Assembly (NCBI GenBank): GCA_963705505.1
Contig: CAVPJU010000006.1
Coordinates: 72,533 to 136,532, forward strand
Origin: an uncultured bacterium
GTDB lineage: Bacteria > Desulfobacterota_D > UBA1144 > Nemesobacterales > UBA2774
Length of the DNA: 64,000 nt
Direction of reading: 5' to 3'
In this document: one piece after another, positions 1-10,814 of the stretch
Layout: every line of letters begins with the position of its first letter
Numbering within the stretch: the stretch's first letter is position 1
Position numbers and translations under genes: made by a program
The notes under the pieces: generated by a model
What the model saw: the letters and a program-made list of their open reading frames with translations, nothing else
Database searches by the model: none
What the model was told of the DNA's origin: nothing

Positions 1-956
<956 letters not shown>

Positions 957-1079
957 TTAATGCAAATTAAATACCCCCGGCCCGATAAAACTCCTAAATG
1001 ATAGTATAAAAGTTATGGCGGTAAAGCGCAATGAAAGCCCGAATTTGTGAACGTTCAAGCGTCCTGTAAACTAATCGGC

Positions 1080-2117
1080 ATGTCTGATTTAGTATTGGGG
1101 ATAGAGACTTCCTGCGACGAAACGGCTGCAGCCGTGATCGAGGGCGGAAGGAAGGCGCTCTCGAACGTCGTCGCGTCTCAGGTGGATATTCATAAGGAAT
1201 ACGGCGGCGTAGTGCCGGAGATTGCGTCGAGAAAGCACGTCGAGCTTATACTGGCCGTAATAAAGAAAGCACTGACGGCGGCAGGCAAGGACGCGGAAGA
1301 GCTTCGAGGGATTGCGGTTACGAACGGACCGGGGCTAATCGGCGCCCTCATGGTGGGGCTTTCGACCGCAAAGGCTTTCGCATACGGCCTCGGCGTCCCG
1401 CTCATCGGCGTGAACCACCTGGAAGCCCATCTGTCGGCTGTGCATCTGGAGCACGACGTGGAGTTCCCGTTCGTGGGCCTGGTCGTTTCGGGAGGACATA
1501 CGAGCCTCTATCTGGTAAAGGACTACACGGAATTCGAGACGCTCGGAAAAACCAGGGACGACGCCGCGGGGGAGGCTTTCGATAAGGCCGCGAAGCTCCT
1601 CGGGCTCGATTATCCGGGCGGAGTTGCGATAGACAGGCTCGCAAAAGAGGGGGACCCGGAGGCGATCGCCTTTCCGAGACCGTTCAAGAGCTCCTCGTCC
1701 CTCGATTTCAGCTTCAGCGGGCTTAAGACCTCTCTCGTGTATTATCTGAGGAAGCATCCTGACCCCGATGACGCGCAGCTGAAAGACATATGCGCCTCCT
1801 ATCAGGAAGCGATAGCCGAAACGCTCGCTGACAAAACGCTGCTTGCGGCAAAAGAGTACGGCGTCAAATCCGCCGTTATTTCAGGCGGAGTGGCGTGCAA
1901 TTCCCGGCTGAGAACGATCGCAGGGGAAAGGTTCGGGGAGGAGGGGATAACGCTCCACATACCGTCGCCCGTATACTGCACCGACAATGCTGCAATGATA
2001 GGGGCGCTCGGCGCAATGAGACTAAGACAAGGGGAAACTTCCGAGCTGAATATAAATCCCTATTCCACTTCCCGGCCTAAGTACATCAGGGGAAAGGGAA
2101 TGGTAAAAAACTCATAA
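1080..2117 (+). CDS. tsaD: tRNA N6-adenosine threonylcarbamoyltransferase TsaD
   Basis: LGIETSCDETAAA, GGVVPEIASRKH, HLEAH, SGGHT, TRDDAAGEAFDK and CTDNAAMI motifs. ATG at 1080 preferred over GTG at 1047. Confidence 0.97.
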   Translation: MSDLVLGIETSCDETAAAVIEGGRKALSNVVASQVDIHKEYGGVVPEIASRKHVELILAVIKKALTAAGKDAEELRGIAVTNGPGLIGALMVGLSTAKAFAYGLGVPLIGVNHLEAHLSAVHLEHDVEFPFVGLVVSGGHTSLYLVKDYTEFETLGKTRDDAAGEAFDKAAKLLGLDYPGGVAIDRLAKEGDPEAIAFPRPFKSSSSLDFSFSGLKTSLVYYLRKHPDPDDAQLKDICASYQEAIAETLADKTLLAAKEYGVKSAVISGGVACNSRLRTIAGERFGEEGITLHIPSPVYCTDNAAMIGALGAMRLRQGETSELNINPYSTSRPKYIRGKGMVKNS

Positions 2118-2129
2118 CACGCCCGCTTA

Positions 2130-2432
2130 TCAGTACTCATAATCGACTACAGCCCTGTCCGAGCGAATCTCGCCCACGAAACCGACGATTTTCAGATGCT
2201 CCGGATGGTTCTGATACGCTTCAAGCCCCTCCCTGTCCTCAAACTCGGAATATAAAACCACGTCGAAGGCGGCCGGGGATGTATTAAAATTAATCCCGAC
2301 CTCGACGGCGACTATCTCCTCTATCACTCCGTCGAGCGCCTCGAGCGCAGCTTTCAGTTTTCCCGCGTTCTCCTCTTTAGAAGCTCCGGCAGCGAAATCC
2401 TTGAGCCTCCACATCACGATGTGTTTGATCAT
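2130..2432 (-). CDS. Dabb family stress-responsive A/B barrel protein
   Basis: MIKHIVMWRLK...FDVVLYSEFEDREGLEAYQNHPEH...RAVVDYE is typical of Dabb. Start trimmed to ATG 2432. Confidence 0.88.
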   Translation of the reverse strand: MIKHIVMWRLKDFAAGASKEENAGKLKAALEALDGVIEEIVAVEVGINFNTSPAAFDVVLYSEFEDREGLEAYQNHPEHLKIVGFVGEIRSDRAVVDYEY

Positions 2433-2655
2433 AGATGCCTCCAGCCTGATCGATACGATACTGCCCCATAGCAATCGGAAAACCGTCATTGACAGTTTTG
2501 ATTTTTTGTAAGGAGCAAATAGAATTATAGTACTGAAGATAATATTCCTTTACAAAGGGGAAGAAGGAAGACCGCTTAAATCCCGAAGTGATATGACCGA
2601 CGGCTAAACTATATTATAAACGAGAGTATTCGTACGCATCCGGGGAGAGAACACG

Positions 2656-4722
2656 TTGGCAGTGACTGAAAGCGAAGAAGCAAAAAAAGGGAAGAGGACA
2701 CAGGACCTCAGGATCGTAGGGTGGCTCTATTCTTTTACGGGACCTCACCGGGCTCTCATGGTCATTGCCCTCATATTGATGATCCTGAGCGCGCTCCTAG
2801 AGCTCGCAGTACCTTACATAACCAAGATCGCGGTCGATAAGTATATCTATCCTTCATGGGGAATCGCCAATTTCAAAGATAACGAAAGGGATAAGACATT
2901 TGAACAATCCATAAGGGACAAATACGCTTCTCTGGTAATACCTCTCGGCGGGAACTCATACCTCGTCGATATGTCCGGACTCGATAACGCCGACAGGACC
3001 AACCTCGAAAAGCTCGGAATGGTCACGAAAGAGAGATACCTTGTTATAAACCAGAGGGACACCAATGAGGACAAGCTCGTCAGGCTAAGGGAAATCATAA
3101 AAAGGAACGGCGGGCTTTTTAAGAAAGCCGATGATATTTACTATATTGACTATGCCGCTCTCAAGGAGCTCGGCAGGAACGACCTCCTCATCCTGAGGAG
3201 CGACGAAATAAGGGAAGTGATTATCCTTTCGGCTCTGGTATTCGCGTGCCTGACCGGAATCTTTATATTCAGCTCGCTCTTTACATACCTGCTCAACTAC
3301 TCGGGGCATAAAATAATGCATAAGATGAGGACGGACGTATTTTCTCATATATTGAGCCTGCCCCAGTCTTTTTTCGATAAAAACCCGGTCGGCAGGCTCA
3401 CGACAAGGGTGACTAACGACATTAACGCCATTAACGAGATGTACACATCCGTAGCCGTCCAGTTCTTTAAAGACGTTCTTGTGGTCATAGGCGTCTTGGT
3501 AGTCATGTTCTATATGAACAGAGAGCTCACTCTCTTCGTCACGCTCTTCACAGTGCTCATGATGTTTTTCGCGGGCCTTTTCAGGATGAAGCTCAAGACC
3601 GTATATAGAGACGTCAGAAGGTCGATCGCCAAGTTAAACGCGTTCGTTCAGGAGAGTGTAAGGGGAATCGTACTGATAAAGCTTTACAACAGGGAAATGG
3701 AAAATTTTGAAAAATTCAAAGAGACGAACAGGGAGAACTTCAAGGCGAACATGGACCAGCTATGGGTGTATGCGACCTTCAGACCGTTTATCGAATTCAT
3801 GAGCGTGTTCACAGTCGCGTTTATACTATGGTACGGAGGACTCAGCGTGCTCAAGCTCGAACTCACACTGGGCGCGCTCATCGCGTATCTCTACTACGTG
3901 AGAATGCTGTTCCGTCCGATCATGGAGCTCGCGGAAAGGTATAACATATTTCAATCCGCCACGGTCGCGAGCGAAAACCTTTACGAACTCGTAAACGTGG
4001 CACCGGAGCAGAAAGAGGGTATAAGGGAAGCTGTCGTAAAGGGCCAGCTTGAATTTAAAAACGTCTGGTTCTCATACAACGACAAAGACTGGGTCCTCAG
4101 AGACGTATCTTTTGCGATAGAGCCCGGAGAGACCGTGGCGCTAGTCGGGCTTACGGGATCGGGCAAGACAACGATCGTCAATCTGATACTCAAATTCTAT
4201 GACGCGCAGAGGGGACAGATACTGTTCGACGGCACTGACATAAGGGAGATCAGCACCGAGTTCCTGAGAGGGAACATCTCTGCTGTATTCCAGGACCTCT
4301 TCTTGTTCGGTAAGAACATATCCGATTCCGAAGACGACGGCTTCTCGAAGGCGATACAGATAGACCAGATAAAGACTAACGGGAATACTATATCTTCAGG
4401 GGAAAAGCAGCTCGTCTCACTGGGACAGGCGTTTTCCAAAAGCTCGAAATTCCTTATACTCGACGAAGCGACTTCGAATATAGACGCCAGGATCGAAAGG
4501 AATATTCAGAAGGCGCTCAGGAACGAAGCGCGGGACCAGACTACGCTGATTATCGCTCACAGGCTCTCGAACGTAAGACACGCCGACAGGATCATGGTTA
4601 TACATAAGGGCGAGATTTCAGAAACGGGCACGCATTCGAGCCTTCTTTCAAAAAAGGGGATATATTACAACCTCTACGAGCTGCAAAACGAGATACAACG
4701 CTTTTCCCTGTTATCGGACTAG
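2656..4722 (+). CDS. ABC exporter half-transporter (TMD+NBD), MdlB/TM288-like subunit
   Basis: TM helices, FFDKNPVGRLTTRVTND, Walker A GLTGSGKTT, Walker B LILDEATS, H-loop IIAHRL, degenerate signature ISSGE. Confidence 0.9.
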   Translation: MAVTESEEAKKGKRTQDLRIVGWLYSFTGPHRALMVIALILMILSALLELAVPYITKIAVDKYIYPSWGIANFKDNERDKTFEQSIRDKYASLVIPLGGNSYLVDMSGLDNADRTNLEKLGMVTKERYLVINQRDTNEDKLVRLREIIKRNGGLFKKADDIYYIDYAALKELGRNDLLILRSDEIREVIILSALVFACLTGIFIFSSLFTYLLNYSGHKIMHKMRTDVFSHILSLPQSFFDKNPVGRLTTRVTNDINAINEMYTSVAVQFFKDVLVVIGVLVVMFYMNRELTLFVTLFTVLMMFFAGLFRMKLKTVYRDVRRSIAKLNAFVQESVRGIVLIKLYNREMENFEKFKETNRENFKANMDQLWVYATFRPFIEFMSVFTVAFILWYGGLSVLKLELTLGALIAYLYYVRMLFRPIMELAERYNIFQSATVASENLYELVNVAPEQKEGIREAVVKGQLEFKNVWFSYNDKDWVLRDVSFAIEPGETVALVGLTGSGKTTIVNLILKFYDAQRGQILFDGTDIREISTEFLRGNISAVFQDLFLFGKNISDSEDDGFSKAIQIDQIKTNGNTISSGEKQLVSLGQAFSKSSKFLILDEATSNIDARIERNIQKALRNEARDQTTLIIAHRLSNVRHADRIMVIHKGEISETGTHSSLLSKKGIYYNLYELQNEIQRFSLLSD

Positions 4723-4742: not shown

Positions 4743-5951
4743 ATGGACACCATGGAATTTATCTCCTTAGAAGAACAAACGGAACAAGTCGCGGCATATC
4801 TGAGAAGAAGGGAGGACTTCACGGGGCACGACCTCGGTATAGTCGTCTCCCCATACCGCATCTCCCCCCTCGGAGCGCACATAGACCACCAGGGCGGACC
4901 CGTGCTGGGGATGACAATCGACGCCAGAACGCTCCTCGCATTCATACCGAATAATGAGAAAAAAGTCCGCCTATACAGCATGAATTACCCCGGAGTCGCC
5001 GAATTCGCCATCGACAATGTCAAGACCCCGGCGAGGGACGACTGGGGAAGATATGCGATGGGGGCTGCGAAGGTGATGAACGATCTTGGCGGCGTAGAGA
5101 CGGGGTTTACGGGCGCTCTTTACGGGACACTGCCCGCCTGCGGGCTCAGCTCCTCCGCATCCTCGGGGCTCGCCTGCCTGAGGGCGCTCGCGTTCGTTAA
5201 CCGTATCAAACTATCGCCCGGGGACTACGTCGAGCTCGACCGGAGGATAGAGAACGATTATTTGAAGCTCTCAAACGGCATCCTCGACCAGTCATCGATC
5301 GTCTACGGTAAAAAAGACAATCTTATATACATCGATACGAACACCGGGAATACGGCCGGGTATCCGAGACCGGAAAGATCCGAAGCGTTCAGGATCATGA
5401 TCGCCTACTCGGGCATACCGCGCGAGCTCACCTCCTCCGGGTTTAATACGCGGGTCGAGGAATGCAGAAAGGCTGCCGGGCTGCTCGGCATAATGGGAGG
5501 GCTGAGGTCGGCAAAAACGCTCTCTTACGTACCTGAGAAGGTGTACCGGGAAAAATCGGAAAAGCTTCCCGATGAGCTCAGAAGGAGGGCGGTCCATTAT
5601 TTTACGGAAGTCGAGCGTGTAACCATGGGAGTAGCCGCCTGGAAGATCGGCGACATGGAAACTTTCGGAAAGCTCATGAACGAATCGTGCGAGAGCTCGT
5701 TCGTGAATTACGAAGTCGGAAGCCCCGAGCTCATATACCTCCAGAAAATTGTAAGCTCGACCGGAGGGGTTTACGGGAGCAGACTGAACGGCGGTGGCTA
5801 CGGGGGCTCGCTGACCGCATTCGTAAGGAAAGATTTCTCCCGCGAATCCGCAGAGGGGATATTAGAACAGTACACGAACGCGTACCCGCAGCTCACAGAG
5901 AGCGCCCGGGTATATTTTGCGGAACCCGACGACGGGCTAAGGCTATTATGA
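4743..5951 (+). CDS. GHMP-family sugar-1-kinase, galactokinase/galacturonokinase-like
   Basis: PYRISPLGAHIDHQGG N-terminal motif, GLSSSAS ATP-binding loop, NGILDQ, GSRLNGGGYGGS C-terminal loop. Confidence 0.88.
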   Translation: MDTMEFISLEEQTEQVAAYLRRREDFTGHDLGIVVSPYRISPLGAHIDHQGGPVLGMTIDARTLLAFIPNNEKKVRLYSMNYPGVAEFAIDNVKTPARDDWGRYAMGAAKVMNDLGGVETGFTGALYGTLPACGLSSSASSGLACLRALAFVNRIKLSPGDYVELDRRIENDYLKLSNGILDQSSIVYGKKDNLIYIDTNTGNTAGYPRPERSEAFRIMIAYSGIPRELTSSGFNTRVEECRKAAGLLGIMGGLRSAKTLSYVPEKVYREKSEKLPDELRRRAVHYFTEVERVTMGVAAWKIGDMETFGKLMNESCESSFVNYEVGSPELIYLQKIVSSTGGVYGSRLNGGGYGGSLTAFVRKDFSRESAEGILEQYTNAYPQLTESARVYFAEPDDGLRLL

Positions 5952-6724
5952 TAGCGATCCTATTATGCGCCGGCTTTGCCACGAGGATGGAGCCTCTTAC
6001 AAAAGATACACCGAAGGCCCTGCTGGAAGTCGGGGGGAAACCCGTCATCGACCACTTAATCGGGCAAATCCTGGAGCTAAGCAATTTGGATTCGATCTAC
6101 ATCGTGACGAACGACCGCTTCTTCAAACACTTTCTTGACTGGGGTGAAAGGAGCGAGGGGGCGATAACGGAAAGAGGGATAAGCCTTCACATATATAATG
6201 ACGGCGTCGAAAGCCCTGAAAGAAGACTTGGCGCTGCGGGCGATCTGGGATTCATGGTGAGCTCCCTCCCCGAAAACAAAGGGGCGCTCGTCGCGGCGGG
6301 AGACAATATCTTTCGCTTCCCGCTCAAGCCCTACTGGGAAATATTCATGAGGGAAGATAAAAGCTATGTGCTCGCACTCAAAACTCAAGACACGGAAAAG
6401 CTCAGAAGGACCGGAGTGCTCGAGCTTGGTCAGGATGACCGCGTAGCGGCTTTTCATGAAAAGCCCGAGAACCCCCCATCGAGCTTTGCCTGCCCTGCCC
6501 TTTATTTTCTTAAACCCCGCTCGCTCGATCTGGTTCATGAGTATCTGTCGTCACCCGATGCCAGAGACGAAATCGGATATTTCATATCATACCTTGCCAA
6601 GCATGACGTTATACATGCATTCCGGGTCGAGGGGGAGGCTATAGACATAGGGACGATAGAGTCCTACGAGAGAGCTAAAAAAATCCTGTCCGAAGAGCCG
6701 GTCATATGTAGAGAAAGAAAGTAA
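5948..6724 (+). CDS. Sugar-phosphate nucleotidyltransferase (NTP_transferase family)
   Basis: ILLCAGFATRMEPLTKDTPKALLEVGGKP, AGDN, FHEKP and DIGT motifs. ATG 5948 overlaps the kinase stop (ATGA). Confidence 0.9.
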   Translation: MIAILLCAGFATRMEPLTKDTPKALLEVGGKPVIDHLIGQILELSNLDSIYIVTNDRFFKHFLDWGERSEGAITERGISLHIYNDGVESPERRLGAAGDLGFMVSSLPENKGALVAAGDNIFRFPLKPYWEIFMREDKSYVLALKTQDTEKLRRTGVLELGQDDRVAAFHEKPENPPSSFACPALYFLKPRSLDLVHEYLSSPDARDEIGYFISYLAKHDVIHAFRVEGEAIDIGTIESYERAKKILSEEPVICRERK

Positions 6725-6777
6725 CTCGCAGGCACCAATCTATATTTTATCTTGATTCGCCTTCGTGAATTTTGTAA

Positions 6778-6798
6778 ATATTTAGGTATGCTAAATAT
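6778..6798. promoter_or_regulatory. Palindromic operator ATATTTAG-GTATG-CTAAATAT upstream of marR
   Basis: 8-bp inverted arms with a 5-bp spacer, 12 bp before the marR ATG. The same motif recurs at 7450-7488. Confidence 0.7.
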
Positions 6799-6810
6799 GA
6801 GGAAGACCAT

Positions 6811-7428
6811 ATGTCCATTTTTGATCCCGTTTACAGGCAAAAAAATATAGGCGGACAGATAACCAGAACCCTATTCCATATCGGCCAGGCGGTCAAGAAC
6901 ATATTCTGGGATAAAAGCAGGCTGGAGCACCTTACCCCCGCGCAGGTCAAATCCCTGCTCTTCATTAATTACACGAGAAAAGACGCTATTACGATAGGGA
7001 ATATAGCCAGGTATCTGACCTGTACGCCCGCAACCGCAAGCGGGGTAATCGACTCGCTCGAAAGGAAAAACCTTATATTGAGGTCAAGGGACACGACAGA
7101 CAGGAGAAGGGTGCATTTATCGCTAACGCCGGATGGGGAAAGGGTCGTCGGCGATATCGAAAATATAGGTTATGAAATGGAAGAAATCATAAGGGAATTC
7201 GATCCCCGGGAACAAAAGATCCTGGAACAGCTTTTACTTAAGATCTCGGAAAAGCTTGCGGAAAGGGGCCTGATTTTTTCGGGCGACATCTGTACCGAGT
7301 GCTGTTTTTTCAAGCGGGACAGTCACTTAGGAGAGCTTAAGCCCCACTATTGTGAAAACCTTCACATACTTCTGAGTGAAGAGGACATATGTATGGAATG
7401 TCCCCACTTCAAAAAAACTCTCAATTGA
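6811..7428 (+). CDS. MarR-family transcriptional regulator with C-terminal Cys-rich extension
   Basis: wHTH with TPATASGVIDSLERKNLILRSRDTTDRRRVHLSLTPDG. The tail contains CTECC-x15-C-x12-CMECPH. Confidence 0.9.
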   Translation: MSIFDPVYRQKNIGGQITRTLFHIGQAVKNIFWDKSRLEHLTPAQVKSLLFINYTRKDAITIGNIARYLTCTPATASGVIDSLERKNLILRSRDTTDRRRVHLSLTPDGERVVGDIENIGYEMEEIIREFDPREQKILEQLLLKISEKLAERGLIFSGDICTECCFFKRDSHLGELKPHYCENLHILLSEEDICMECPHFKKTLN

Positions 7429-9825: not shown

Positions 9826-10650
9826 CTATAGCATAATGCAATCTTCCAGAAACGAGTAAAACTCCTCTCTTTTATCCAACATTATCCAGTGAGACGCCAC
9901 ATTAAATTCCTTATATTCCAGATCATTTCTAATTAAAAACCTCCTTGCAGAATCCATAACCGGTCTTGTCCCGACACAAAAGATCTTAGGTATCACTAAT
10001 TCTTTATAAGCGACGGATATCTCGTTATTTCCTTCCCGGTCTTCGGATTCAAACCTGCTGCATATCTCCACTGCCGTTTGGGCAAAGGCTTCGGGGGCAC
10101 ACTCGGTTACGGAATCAAAATATTTTATAGTCGAAGGGCTTTCGAAATCCTCAAGGAGATTCTTTTTAAACCCGCCTTCGTGGAGCCATTTGCCGAATTT
10201 TCTCATATCATGATTAAAATCCTCCAATACCCTGACGGCATTTATCGATTCGATTAGAGTGTCCCGTGCAATGCCTCCTTCGACATTCACAAACTTTTTA
10301 ATCCTCCCATGATTATCATCACCGCATATTAACGCCCCCAGAATACCTCCGTAAGAATGACCGACTAAAATTATATCTTTCAGATCAAAGCGGCTTATTA
10401 GCTCCCGGAGAATTTTCATCTGACACGAAAATGAATAATCCGGGTTCTTCTTAACTTTTTCACTTTTACCGAATCCGAGCAGATCCGGGACGATAATATT
10501 GTATTTACCCGGCATGCCGAAGGCGTCGAAGAAACACCTCCCGGACTCGCCTATTCCATGAATGAATAAAATCGGGGTGCTGCTGCGCTCATTTATCCTG
10601 TACCTGATAAAAATTTTGTGACCCAGCAAATTTATAAGTTCCGCTTTCAT
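9826..10650 (-). CDS. Alpha/beta-fold hydrolase
   Basis: FIHGIG oxyanion motif, PDLLGFGKS, nucleophile elbow GHSYGG, C-terminal His (SHW). Confidence 0.85.
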   Translation of the reverse strand: MKAELINLLGHKIFIRYRINERSSTPILFIHGIGESGRCFFDAFGMPGKYNIIVPDLLGFGKSEKVKKNPDYSFSCQMKILRELISRFDLKDIILVGHSYGGILGALICGDDNHGRIKKFVNVEGGIARDTLIESINAVRVLEDFNHDMRKFGKWLHEGGFKKNLLEDFESPSTIKYFDSVTECAPEAFAQTAVEICSRFESEDREGNNEISVAYKELVIPKIFCVGTRPVMDSARRFLIRNDLEYKEFNVASHWIMLDKREEFYSFLEDCIML

Positions 10651-10814
10651 GGTCAGTTCCCCGGTTAGATTATTTTGAGGAGGAATTGTATCTTAATTCC
10701 CCGTTATGAATCGGCTCTTCCATTTTATATATAATTGTAGTATGGATTTTATTAACCGGGTTCCCGTAAAATTTCCATGATTGCCGGAACAAATCAAAAA
10801 ACGAGGGTAACAGG

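Follow-up and report, generated by a model that had tools for sequence, protein, structure and literature searches.

A candidate hexuronate salvage module in an uncultured bacterium: a galacturonokinase-like kinase gene coupled to a nucleotidyltransferase gene

An overlapping kinase and nucleotidyltransferase gene pair

The window, the whole 64,000-nucleotide stretch of uncultured bacterial DNA analysed here, encodes a GHMP sugar kinase followed directly by a short sugar-1-phosphate nucleotidyltransferase of a kind we call type A (Table 1). The kinase carries the Pfam domains GalKase_gal_bdg, GHMP_kinases_N and GHMP_kinases_C, and its AF2 model (pLDDT 93.6) has the galactokinase fold, with TM 0.8-0.9 to solved galactokinases (GalKs). 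Its translation contains the non-canonical motif I PYRISPLGAHIDHQGG as well as DRRIEN, NGILDQS and GFNTRVEEC, all as listed in the initial annotation of this DNA. The catalytic motifs are intact. Since the GLSSSAS loop is conserved across galacturonokinase (GalAK)-like kinases and GalKs, the enzyme is probably catalytically competent, and the Asp of NGILDQ is presumably its catalytic base, a role we carry over from the GalK literature. A second ATG at 4752 ('MEF...') is the usual start among relatives; as most of these are 399 aa long, translation may begin there rather than at 4743.

Table 1. Features of the kinase-transferase locus, in window coordinates
Feature	Position	Strand	Remarks
ABCB-type half-transporter	2656..4722	+	directly upstream of kinase, 20-bp gap
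GalAK-like GHMP sugar-1-kinase	4743..5951	+	402 aa (399 aa from start 4752)
Motif I PYRISPLGAHIDHQGG (res 37-52)	4851..4898	+	Ala45 where GalK has the C6-OH-binding Glu
Motif II phosphate-binding loop GLSSSAS (res 134-140)	5142..5162	+	conserved in GalAK-like kinases and GalK
Asp182 of NGILDQ, presumed catalytic base	5286..5288	+	Asp in 93/94 family representatives and 18/18 GalKs
Phe234	5442..5444	+	counterpart of Arabidopsis GalAK Tyr250 (MAFFT alignment)
Gly354 in motif III GGGYGGS	5802..5804	+	corresponds to plant GalAK Arg371 (GAGFRGC) and human GALK1 Gly349
ATGA overlap of kinase stop and transferase start	5948..5951	+	translational coupling
Short sugar-1-phosphate nucleotidyltransferase, type A	5948..6724	+	258 aa; PF00483

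The transferase scored 95 bits against PF00483 (gathering cut-off 21.2) and contains the motifs AGFATR (the G-x-x-T-R loop), PK, GDN and EKP. It fell far below every cut-off of the named equivalogs RmlA, GalU, AglF and MurU: AglF scored best (86 vs 400 bits), rmlA reached 49 vs 361 and galU 45 vs 327, and the match to the MurU models was confined to the N-terminal 45 residues. The top PDB match was RmlA 3hl3 (E 1e-15). The DNA at 5946-5953 reads ttATGAta, in which the transferase ATG (5948-5950) overlaps the kinase TGA (5949-5951), bearing out the ATGA overlap described in the initial annotation. The two genes likewise abut or overlap in relatives.

Kinase family and diagnostic residues

The window kinase matched Arabidopsis GalAK, which we take to be At3g10700 (EC 2.7.1.44; Yang et al. 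2009 JBC), over its full length with 39% identity (241 bits, E 3e-80), compared with 27% identity and 131 bits for E. coli GalK. In our trees all sequences with G-A-H-x-D-H-Q formed one clade, with plant GalAK inside and the canonical GalKs outside (SH-aLRT 100 in one tree, UFBoot/SH-aLRT 100/100 in another). The kinase is thus placed with plant GalAK and away from ordinary GalK, as the initial annotation had favoured. Within the clade it falls in a strongly supported subclade (100/99) distinct from that of plant GalAK, which itself nests among prokaryotic sequences. All five NCBIfam GalK models (TIGR00131, NF003705 and others) scored the window kinase under their curated cut-offs, with 178.9 vs 226.65 bits, 204.9 vs 385 bits and lower values still for the others, and the canonical G-E-H-T-D-Y signature with its C6-OH-binding Glu is not present, GAHIDH standing in its place. 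By sequence, the window kinase is a member of the galacturonic-acid kinase family of plants (KEGG K18677), here called GalAK-like, and is not an ordinary galactokinase. Relatives are labelled 'galactokinase' or 'galactokinase family protein' at NCBI, and the automatic annotation at JGI already names homologues 'galacturonokinase'.

Residues were counted in 119 aligned representatives, including 94 GalAK-like sequences and 18 GalKs, with 28 sequences in the window subclade, and were numbered in a MAFFT alignment with the Arabidopsis GalAK-cluster protein (P0124) and E. coli GalK as references. G-A-H-x-D-H-Q was found in 94/119 representatives and is the signature of the family, whereas canonical GalKs show G-E-H-x-D-Y-N. 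The motif I residues A45, H46, D48, H49 and Q50 of the window kinase occupy positions that are 97-100% conserved in the family; Ala was present in 91/94 GalAK-like representatives, His49 in 94/94 and Gln50 in 93/94, vs Glu, Tyr and Asn in GalKs. E. coli Glu34 aligned with Arabidopsis Ala41 and window Ala45, and Arabidopsis Tyr250 with E. coli Tyr223 and window Phe234. Both substitutions proposed in the initial annotation, of the C6-OH-binding Glu by Ala as in GalAK and of GalAK Tyr250 by Phe, were therefore recovered, and the Arabidopsis motifs that it had quoted were essentially right (the Arabidopsis GalAK sequence used as query was 97% identical to a database protein).

Tyr250 is said to set the C4 selectivity of Arabidopsis GalAK. 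This position holds Tyr in 56 and Phe in 36 of the family representatives, so Tyr250 is not a family-wide defining residue; the window subclade has Phe in 19, Tyr in 7 and Leu in 2. At the position of motif III Arg371, Arg or Lys occurs in 43/94 family representatives, including Arg in all plant GalAKs sampled and in their nearest prokaryotic relatives, while Gly occurs in 27/28 members of the window subclade and in 18/18 GalKs. Phe234 and Gly354 likely sit at two positions that matter, and if Arg371 is the carboxylate ligand, the window subclade may accept another sugar. We considered Arg103 (in W-G-R-Y, 25/28 of the window subclade) as a substitute carboxylate ligand and dropped it, partly because 26/94 family members have neither Arg.

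Importers, substrate and recurrence of the pair

The window pair itself has no adjoining importer gene. Related pairs elsewhere adjoin an MFS_2/GPH transporter (locus L024), an SSF symporter (L076) or a DctPQM TRAP transporter (L069), and the neighbours of the L024 pair also include YdjC, PIG-L, DegT, SDR epimerase and Gfo/Idh/MocA genes. The subclade of the window kinase (100/99) also holds the kinases of L069 and L024, and Phe234 and Gly354 are common to all three. TRAP substrates generally bear a carboxylate. At L069, close relatives of both genes come after the TRAP transporter genes, a link seen on a single low-coverage contig with frameshifts and, for the binding protein, by similarity only; the transferase there is 39% identical to that of the window. 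The best PDB match of one half of the L069 DctP was 4N8Y, which is galacturonate-bound, and that of the other 4X8R, which is glucuronate-bound (PMC11668362). On this similarity the L069 binding protein most resembles galacturonate- or glucuronate-binding proteins.

A hexuronate is the likely substrate of the window kinase. The enzyme would phosphorylate free galacturonate and/or glucuronate at the anomeric C1-OH, the Phe that replaces Tyr250 being an argument for relaxed C4 selectivity, and the coupled transferase would join the resulting uronate-1-phosphate to an NTP to give an NDP-hexuronate. The same two-step chemistry might instead serve a different acidic sugar, a sugar without a C6-OH (a pentose such as L-arabinose, or a 6-deoxy sugar) or an amino sugar released in envelope turnover, which we regard as somewhat unlikely. 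Motif III is GalK-like, with Gly354 for the plant Arg371, and Tyr250 is replaced by Phe, but the motif I changes are common to the whole family. Ala45, in dropping the C6-OH ligand, would also suit sugars lacking that group, and the L024 neighbours are typical of amino-sugar chemistry; a pair of the same subclade, however, follows a TRAP system with a uronate-binder-like protein. The family comprises roughly 650 members at E <= 1e-30 and >90 clusters at 50% identity, a size and diversity that make a single specificity unlikely, yet the only characterised members of the clade that we know of are the plant galacturonokinases.

The pairing of the two genes was surveyed in 120 genomes of the phylum, of which 39 carried the kinase and 18 both genes. 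A transferase ortholog was absent genome-wide from 21 of the 39, so the kinase has no strict need of that transferase, and the kinase genes of these 21 genomes had no internal stop codons. One genome had a frameshifted transferase, and one genome retained the transferase behind the ABC gene with a PQQ/GSDH-like gene in the place of the kinase. These patterns would suit a kinase that acts alone, passing its sugar-1-phosphate to a mutase, a phosphorylase or a GalU/RmlA-type transferase of broad specificity, with the adjacent transferase non-obligate. This is improbable, however, given the ATGA overlap, the 18/19 transferase orthologs in the phylum that directly adjoin a kinase, and a pairing that arose independently in distant phyla with three non-orthologous NTP-transferase types in the partner role; moreover, generic transferases of other kinds are present in kinase-only genomes and could stand in for type A.

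MAGs of Acidobacteriota, Chloroflexota and Gammaproteobacteria also contained the pair, as did further metagenome contigs, and type A orthologs (38-59% identity) adjoin GalAK-like kinases in other phyla. Conservation of the pair, on which the initial annotation had staked its proposal, thus held as recurrence in several phyla but not as a strict association within the phylum. DctM-kinase and kinase-transferase chimeras were considered as Rosetta-stone fusions; they are probably artefacts, produced by frameshifts in assemblies of low coverage, and we kept them as adjacency evidence only.

The ABCB-type half-transporter gene, whose product has a ~115 aa insert following TM1, is invariably upstream of the kinase in the lineage of the window. 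We considered it as part of the module, with a role either in import, despite an exporter fold, or in export of the glycan product, and retained it as a conserved neighbour only: its ortholog is present in 94/120 phylum genomes, most kinase-less ones included. It probably lies outside the module.

Proposed function and comparison with known systems

In the Dadabacteria genome from which the window derives (93.6% complete) we found no other GalK, no GalT (no PF01087 match, whereas control genomes match) and no UxaC, which leaves the genome with none of the known catabolic routes. It does encode an NDP-sugar dehydrogenase, as do 116/120 phylum genomes, as detected by TIGR03026, a model that lumps UDP-glucose dehydrogenase with other NDP-sugar dehydrogenases. 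NDP-uronates may therefore already be made in the lineage and the kinase route may be accessory, as uronate salvage is in plants. The idea that salvage replaces a missing de novo route was rejected, since the dehydrogenase is near-universal in the phylum with or without the kinase. With these catabolic genes missing and the dehydrogenase present, an anabolic salvage role fits best.

We propose, with moderate confidence, that the two genes form an anabolic salvage module that converts free hexuronate via uronate-1-phosphate to NDP-hexuronate. The product would be used in glycan or envelope synthesis, and the route would run parallel to the de novo NDP-sugar dehydrogenase route; we infer what the substrate and the nucleotide are and where the product goes. 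An ordinary galactokinase at the entry to a galactose pathway of the Leloir or Isselbacher type would account for the Pfam galactokinase signature and GHMP domains, the NCBI names of relatives and the best solved structures being GalKs, but is very improbable in view of the scores under all curated GalK cut-offs, the 100/100 branch that parts the kinase from GalKs, the replacement of the C6-OH-binding Glu by Ala and the lack of GalT in the genome.

The hexuronate salvage reading can be extended, more tentatively, to a joint proposal: that land plants drew their GalAK from an ancestral pool formed by the prokaryotic GalAK-like family, and that the Phe/Gly subclade with type A transferases constitutes an unrecognised bacterial pathway of hexuronate import and activation. 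Such a pathway could take both C4 epimers, might use a nucleotide other than UDP, and would bypass the dehydrogenase and epimerase steps. We see this combination as possible, if on the doubtful side.

If the salvage proposal is correct, free uronates would be converted directly to nucleotide-uronates in Dadabacteria/Thermodesulfobacteriota, Acidobacteriota, Chloroflexota, KSB1 and one Gammaproteobacteria MAG, with pectin, alginate-like polymers, glycosaminoglycans or the cells' own envelope as candidate uronate sources. To our knowledge, experimental evidence of such salvage is confined to plants and a few lower animals. Its occurrence in these bacteria would correct widespread 'galactokinase' and 'glucose-1-phosphate thymidylyltransferase' annotation, offer compact and possibly C4-tolerant enzymes for chemo-enzymatic NDP-uronic acid synthesis, bear on the origin of plant GalAK from its position among prokaryotic sequences, and supply models of carbon cycling by these uncultured groups with an anabolic fate of uronates. 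The initial annotation had described the route as known from plants rather than bacteria. In keeping with this, a literature search returned no paper on a bacterial GalAK and no enzyme data for prokaryotic family members, but bacteria are known to use the general scheme of an anomeric kinase followed by a pyrophosphorylase (Fkp, AmgK/MurU), and the JGI name for homologues also qualifies the claim.

The window kinase shares with Arabidopsis GalAK the GAHxDHQ motif with Ala for Glu, NGILDQ, xNxRVxEC and membership of the same clade, but differs in having Phe and Gly at Tyr250 and motif III Arg371 and in belonging to a different subclade. It is also translationally coupled to a short RmlA-like transferase, whereas plant GalAK has no dedicated partner gene, plants using the broad UDP-sugar pyrophosphorylase USP. 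Canonical GalK (TIGR00131; PDB 1s4e, 1pie, 1wuu) is alike in fold, in motifs II and III and in the catalytic Asp and Arg, but has GEHxDYN in motif I where the window kinase has GAHxDHQ, forms a separate clade, and has a GalT partner that the window genome lacks. Bacterial free-sugar activation by an anomeric kinase and then a sugar-1-phosphate nucleotidyltransferase is likewise seen in Bacteroides fragilis Fkp, a single fused L-fucokinase/GDP-fucose pyrophosphorylase acting on L-fucose, and in Pseudomonas AmgK-MurU, which acts on MurNAc/GlcNAc and in which AmgK is an APH-type and not a GHMP kinase.

Zebrafish and lower eukaryotes possess GKUP, a glucuronokinase fused to a short bacterial-type nucleotidyltransferase that serves UDP-uronate salvage (PMC3938481). 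In GKUP, and by our proposal in the window pair, a GHMP kinase that acts on the anomeric position of uronic acids is physically linked to an NTP-transferase of bacterial type and ~260 aa; GKUP is a fusion with the transferase N-terminal, whereas the window has two separate genes, of which the kinase gene leads. Among GHMP kinases, the GKUP kinase domain is of the GlcAK type and not GalAK-like. Set beside these systems, the kinase-transferase pair is probably a bacterial version of a known salvage scheme.

Gene layout and the family of the kinase

Most relatives of the window kinase are 399 aa long and begin at the second Met, so position 4752 is an alternative start for the 402-aa reading frame. 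In Pfam the protein matched the galactokinase signature and both GHMP domains, and it scored under the curated cut-off of all five NCBIfam galactokinase equivalogs (for example, 178.9 against 226.65 bits for TIGR00131). The closest solved structures were ordinary galactokinases (GalK; P. furiosus 1s4e, E 1.6e-40), and the AF2 model (pLDDT 93.6) superposed on GalK structures with TM 0.8-0.9; the PDB has no galacturonokinase (GalAK) structure.

Features of the window and of loci used for comparison
Locus	Feature	Positions	Strand	Remarks
Window	ABCB-type half-transporter	2656-4722		20 bp upstream of kinase
Window	GalAK-like kinase	4743..5951	+	402 aa; PYRISPLGAHIDHQGG, DRRIEN, NGILDQS, GFNTRVEEC
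Window	Nucleotidyltransferase (PF00483)	5948..6724	+	258 aa; same orientation as kinase
Window	Kinase TGA	5949-5951		overlaps transferase ATG
Window	Transferase ATG	5948-5950		overlaps kinase TGA
Window	MarR and sigma-70 genes			downstream of pair, 86-bp gap
L024, Anaerolinea	Gfo/Idh/MocA, PIG-L, SDR epimerase, YdjC and DegT genes	780-4579 and 9969-11312		surround transporter-kinase-transferase trio
L026, Planctomycetota	Intermediate form	5974-7161		GRLNLIGAHLDYSGG
L070, metagenome	Chimera-like ORF	2139-3764		541 aa
L071, metagenome	Chimera-like ORF	319-1944		541 aa, identical to that in L070
L080 (G019:C13)	Secreted PQQ/GSDH-like aldose dehydrogenase	2893-4056		387 aa
L081 (G087:C9)	Transferase ortholog, frameshifted	~887-1643		split near residue 31

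To obtain plant GalAK sequences, a protein database was queried with an approximate version of Arabidopsis GalAK; the best match was a genuine protein of an Arabidopsis cluster, 97% identical to the query, and about 120 plant proteins named galacturonokinase at source came next. Over its full length the window kinase was 39% identical to that Arabidopsis sequence (241 bits, E 3e-80); its identity to E. coli GalK was 27% (131 bits). JGI automatic annotation names its homologues 'galacturonokinase' or 'galactokinase/galacturonokinase', and no description of a bacterial GalAK was found in the literature searched.

An exhaustive HMMER search returned 657 cluster representatives at E <= 1e-30. Motif I split the best 150 of these cleanly, into P-Y-R-x-x-P-L-G-A-H-x-D-H-Q and G-R-V-N-L-I-G-E-H-T-D-Y forms. 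A quick tree with 119 sequences placed every GAHxDHQ protein, plant GalAK and the window kinase among them, in a single clade (SH-aLRT 100), and a careful tree of 73 sequences recovered this clade with UFBoot/SH-aLRT support of 100/100. The kinase therefore does not group with ordinary GalK, in agreement with the initial annotation, and phylogeny together with motif I makes it a member of the GalAK-like family. It falls within a 28-row subclade (100/99); plant GalAKs sit among prokaryotic sequences in the sister subclade (98/97). This nesting is a hint that the plant gene came from bacteria, with short Logan/ENA contigs supplying the nearest non-plant sequences. Nearest to the plant proteins in the trees were P0303 (sister, 99/89) and then P0284 with P0335 (98/83). 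Between the canonical GalKs and the GalAK-like clade branch intermediate forms, namely the L026 protein, with a GalK-like motif yet Ala for Glu, and P0381 and P0389, which carry GRIEFIGNHVDYNGG.

Pairing of kinase and transferase

Conservation of the gene pair, which the initial annotation had expected, held in part. Among 120 species genomes of the phylum, 39 carried the kinase and 19 a transferase ortholog; in the 18 with both, the genes were adjacent in every case, and the pair recurs beyond the phylum. However, 21 genomes (three whole genera and one more genome) had the kinase with no transferase ortholog anywhere. The frameshifted ortholog of L081, on a 2.8-Mb long-read contig, reflects early decay or else a sequencing error at a homopolymer, and in L080, from a related genome, the aldose dehydrogenase occupies the kinase slot between the ABC gene and the type A transferase. 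Taken with the counts, these two loci make the pair look ancestral in the order, yet the transferase is dispensable.

Outside the phylum, an NTP-transferase follows the kinase, frequently with overlapping codons, in Thermoanaerobaculia (L021, L023) and Anaerolinea (L024), and the arrangement also occurred in a Gammaproteobacteria MAG (L074) and in metagenome contigs (L069, L072, L073, L076). L020 and the P0250 contig had no NTP-transferase behind the kinase. Transferase partners belong to three non-orthologous types: type A, window-like and 38-59% identical (L010, L017, L072, L069, L076); type B (L024, L073, L074); and type C, which has a tail of hexapeptide repeats (L021, L023). Pairing that recurs independently in this way gives good evidence for joint action of the two activities.

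The window transferase is a PF00483 enzyme in which the expected loop is present together with GDN and EKP motifs; it scored far under all cut-offs for RmlA, GalU, AglF, MurU and other named equivalogs. Its homologues are named just 'nucleotidyltransferase family protein' or, by JGI, 'glucose-1-phosphate thymidylyltransferase'.

The chimera-like ORF, found in two independent metagenome samples within a Wzx/Wzy polysaccharide cluster, consists of the first two thirds of a GalAK-like kinase (lacking GHMP_C) fused to a UDP-glucose/GDP-mannose dehydrogenase reduced to its central and C-terminal domains (lacking the NAD-binding domain). It resembles a deletion chimera formed from two once-adjacent genes.

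The half-transporter, whose PDB matches include TmrAB, TM287/288 and BmrCD (YheH chain), contains some 115 inserted residues (~63-178, between TM1 and TM2) with no Pfam match. It precedes the kinase in every case in the window's lineage. We rejected it as part of the module and regard it as a conserved neighbour, because its ortholog occurs in 94 of the 120 genomes, mostly without the kinase. Sister families (L010, L017) have two ABC genes (575 and ~700 aa) before the kinase, where the window has one.

Clues to the substrate

Alignment bore out both pocket replacements noted initially: Glu34 of E. coli GalK corresponds to Arabidopsis Ala41 and window Ala45, and Arabidopsis Tyr250 to window Phe234. 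Phe at the latter position is common in the family (Tyr 56, Phe 36; in the window subclade Phe 19, Tyr 7, Leu 2). The motif III Arg (GAGFRGC, Arabidopsis R371) is found in plant GalAKs and their nearest prokaryotic relatives, with Arg or Lys in 43 of 94 sequences; Gly stands there in 27 of 28 members of the window subclade (GGGYGGS) and in 18 of 18 GalKs. This position (window Gly354) equals human GALK1 Gly349, a conserved motif III glycine. If Arg371 contacts the carboxylate, the substrate of the window subclade may differ from that of plant GalAK. Arg103, specific to this subclade, was weighed as a stand-in for the motif III Arg and dropped as evidence.

Importers adjoin the pair elsewhere: an MFS_2 transporter of the glycoside-pentoside-hexuronide type in L024, an SSF symporter in L076 and a complete DctP-DctQ-DctM TRAP system in L069. 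The L069 and L024 kinases belong to the window kinase's subclade, both with Phe234 and Gly354, and the L069 transferase is a type A ortholog 39% identical to that of the window. Compared with the PDB, the two halves of the L069 DctP were closest to 4N8Y and 4X8R (E 1e-24 to 1e-29), reported bound to galacturonate and glucuronate respectively (PMC11668362). This link, drawn from similarity and from one low-coverage contig, is the strongest evidence for a hexuronate substrate in the Gly-type subclade. The genes around the L024 trio look like an amino-sugar or acetamido-uronate toolkit.

The closest relatives of the window point to a Dadabacteria / Thermodesulfobacteriota MAG as its source. The window's own genome (2.88 Mb, 93.6% complete) contains no canonical GalK, GalT or uronate isomerase UxaC, and has an NDP-sugar dehydrogenase, as do 116 of 120 genomes of the phylum; the kinase is therefore unlikely to serve catabolism by any known route. 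As an accessory salvage route it would add to the supply of activated sugar without being its sole source.

Comparison with known salvage systems

The feature is real, and its initial reading as a route from uronic acid through the 1-phosphate to an NDP-uronic acid was in the main correct as to the kind of route. Salvage by an anomeric kinase and then an NDP-sugar pyrophosphorylase, the general mechanism, is well supported and held with high confidence; a hexuronate is a likely substrate, at roughly even confidence. The pair matches the two-step logic of Bacteroides Fkp and Pseudomonas AmgK-MurU, and shares it with plant GalAK plus USP. From plant GalAK the window kinase departs at Tyr250 (Phe) and Arg371 (Gly). 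The same logic is seen in zebrafish, where glucuronokinase and transferase are fused (PMC3938481). The pair would be a new bacterial variant of an already known salvage scheme.
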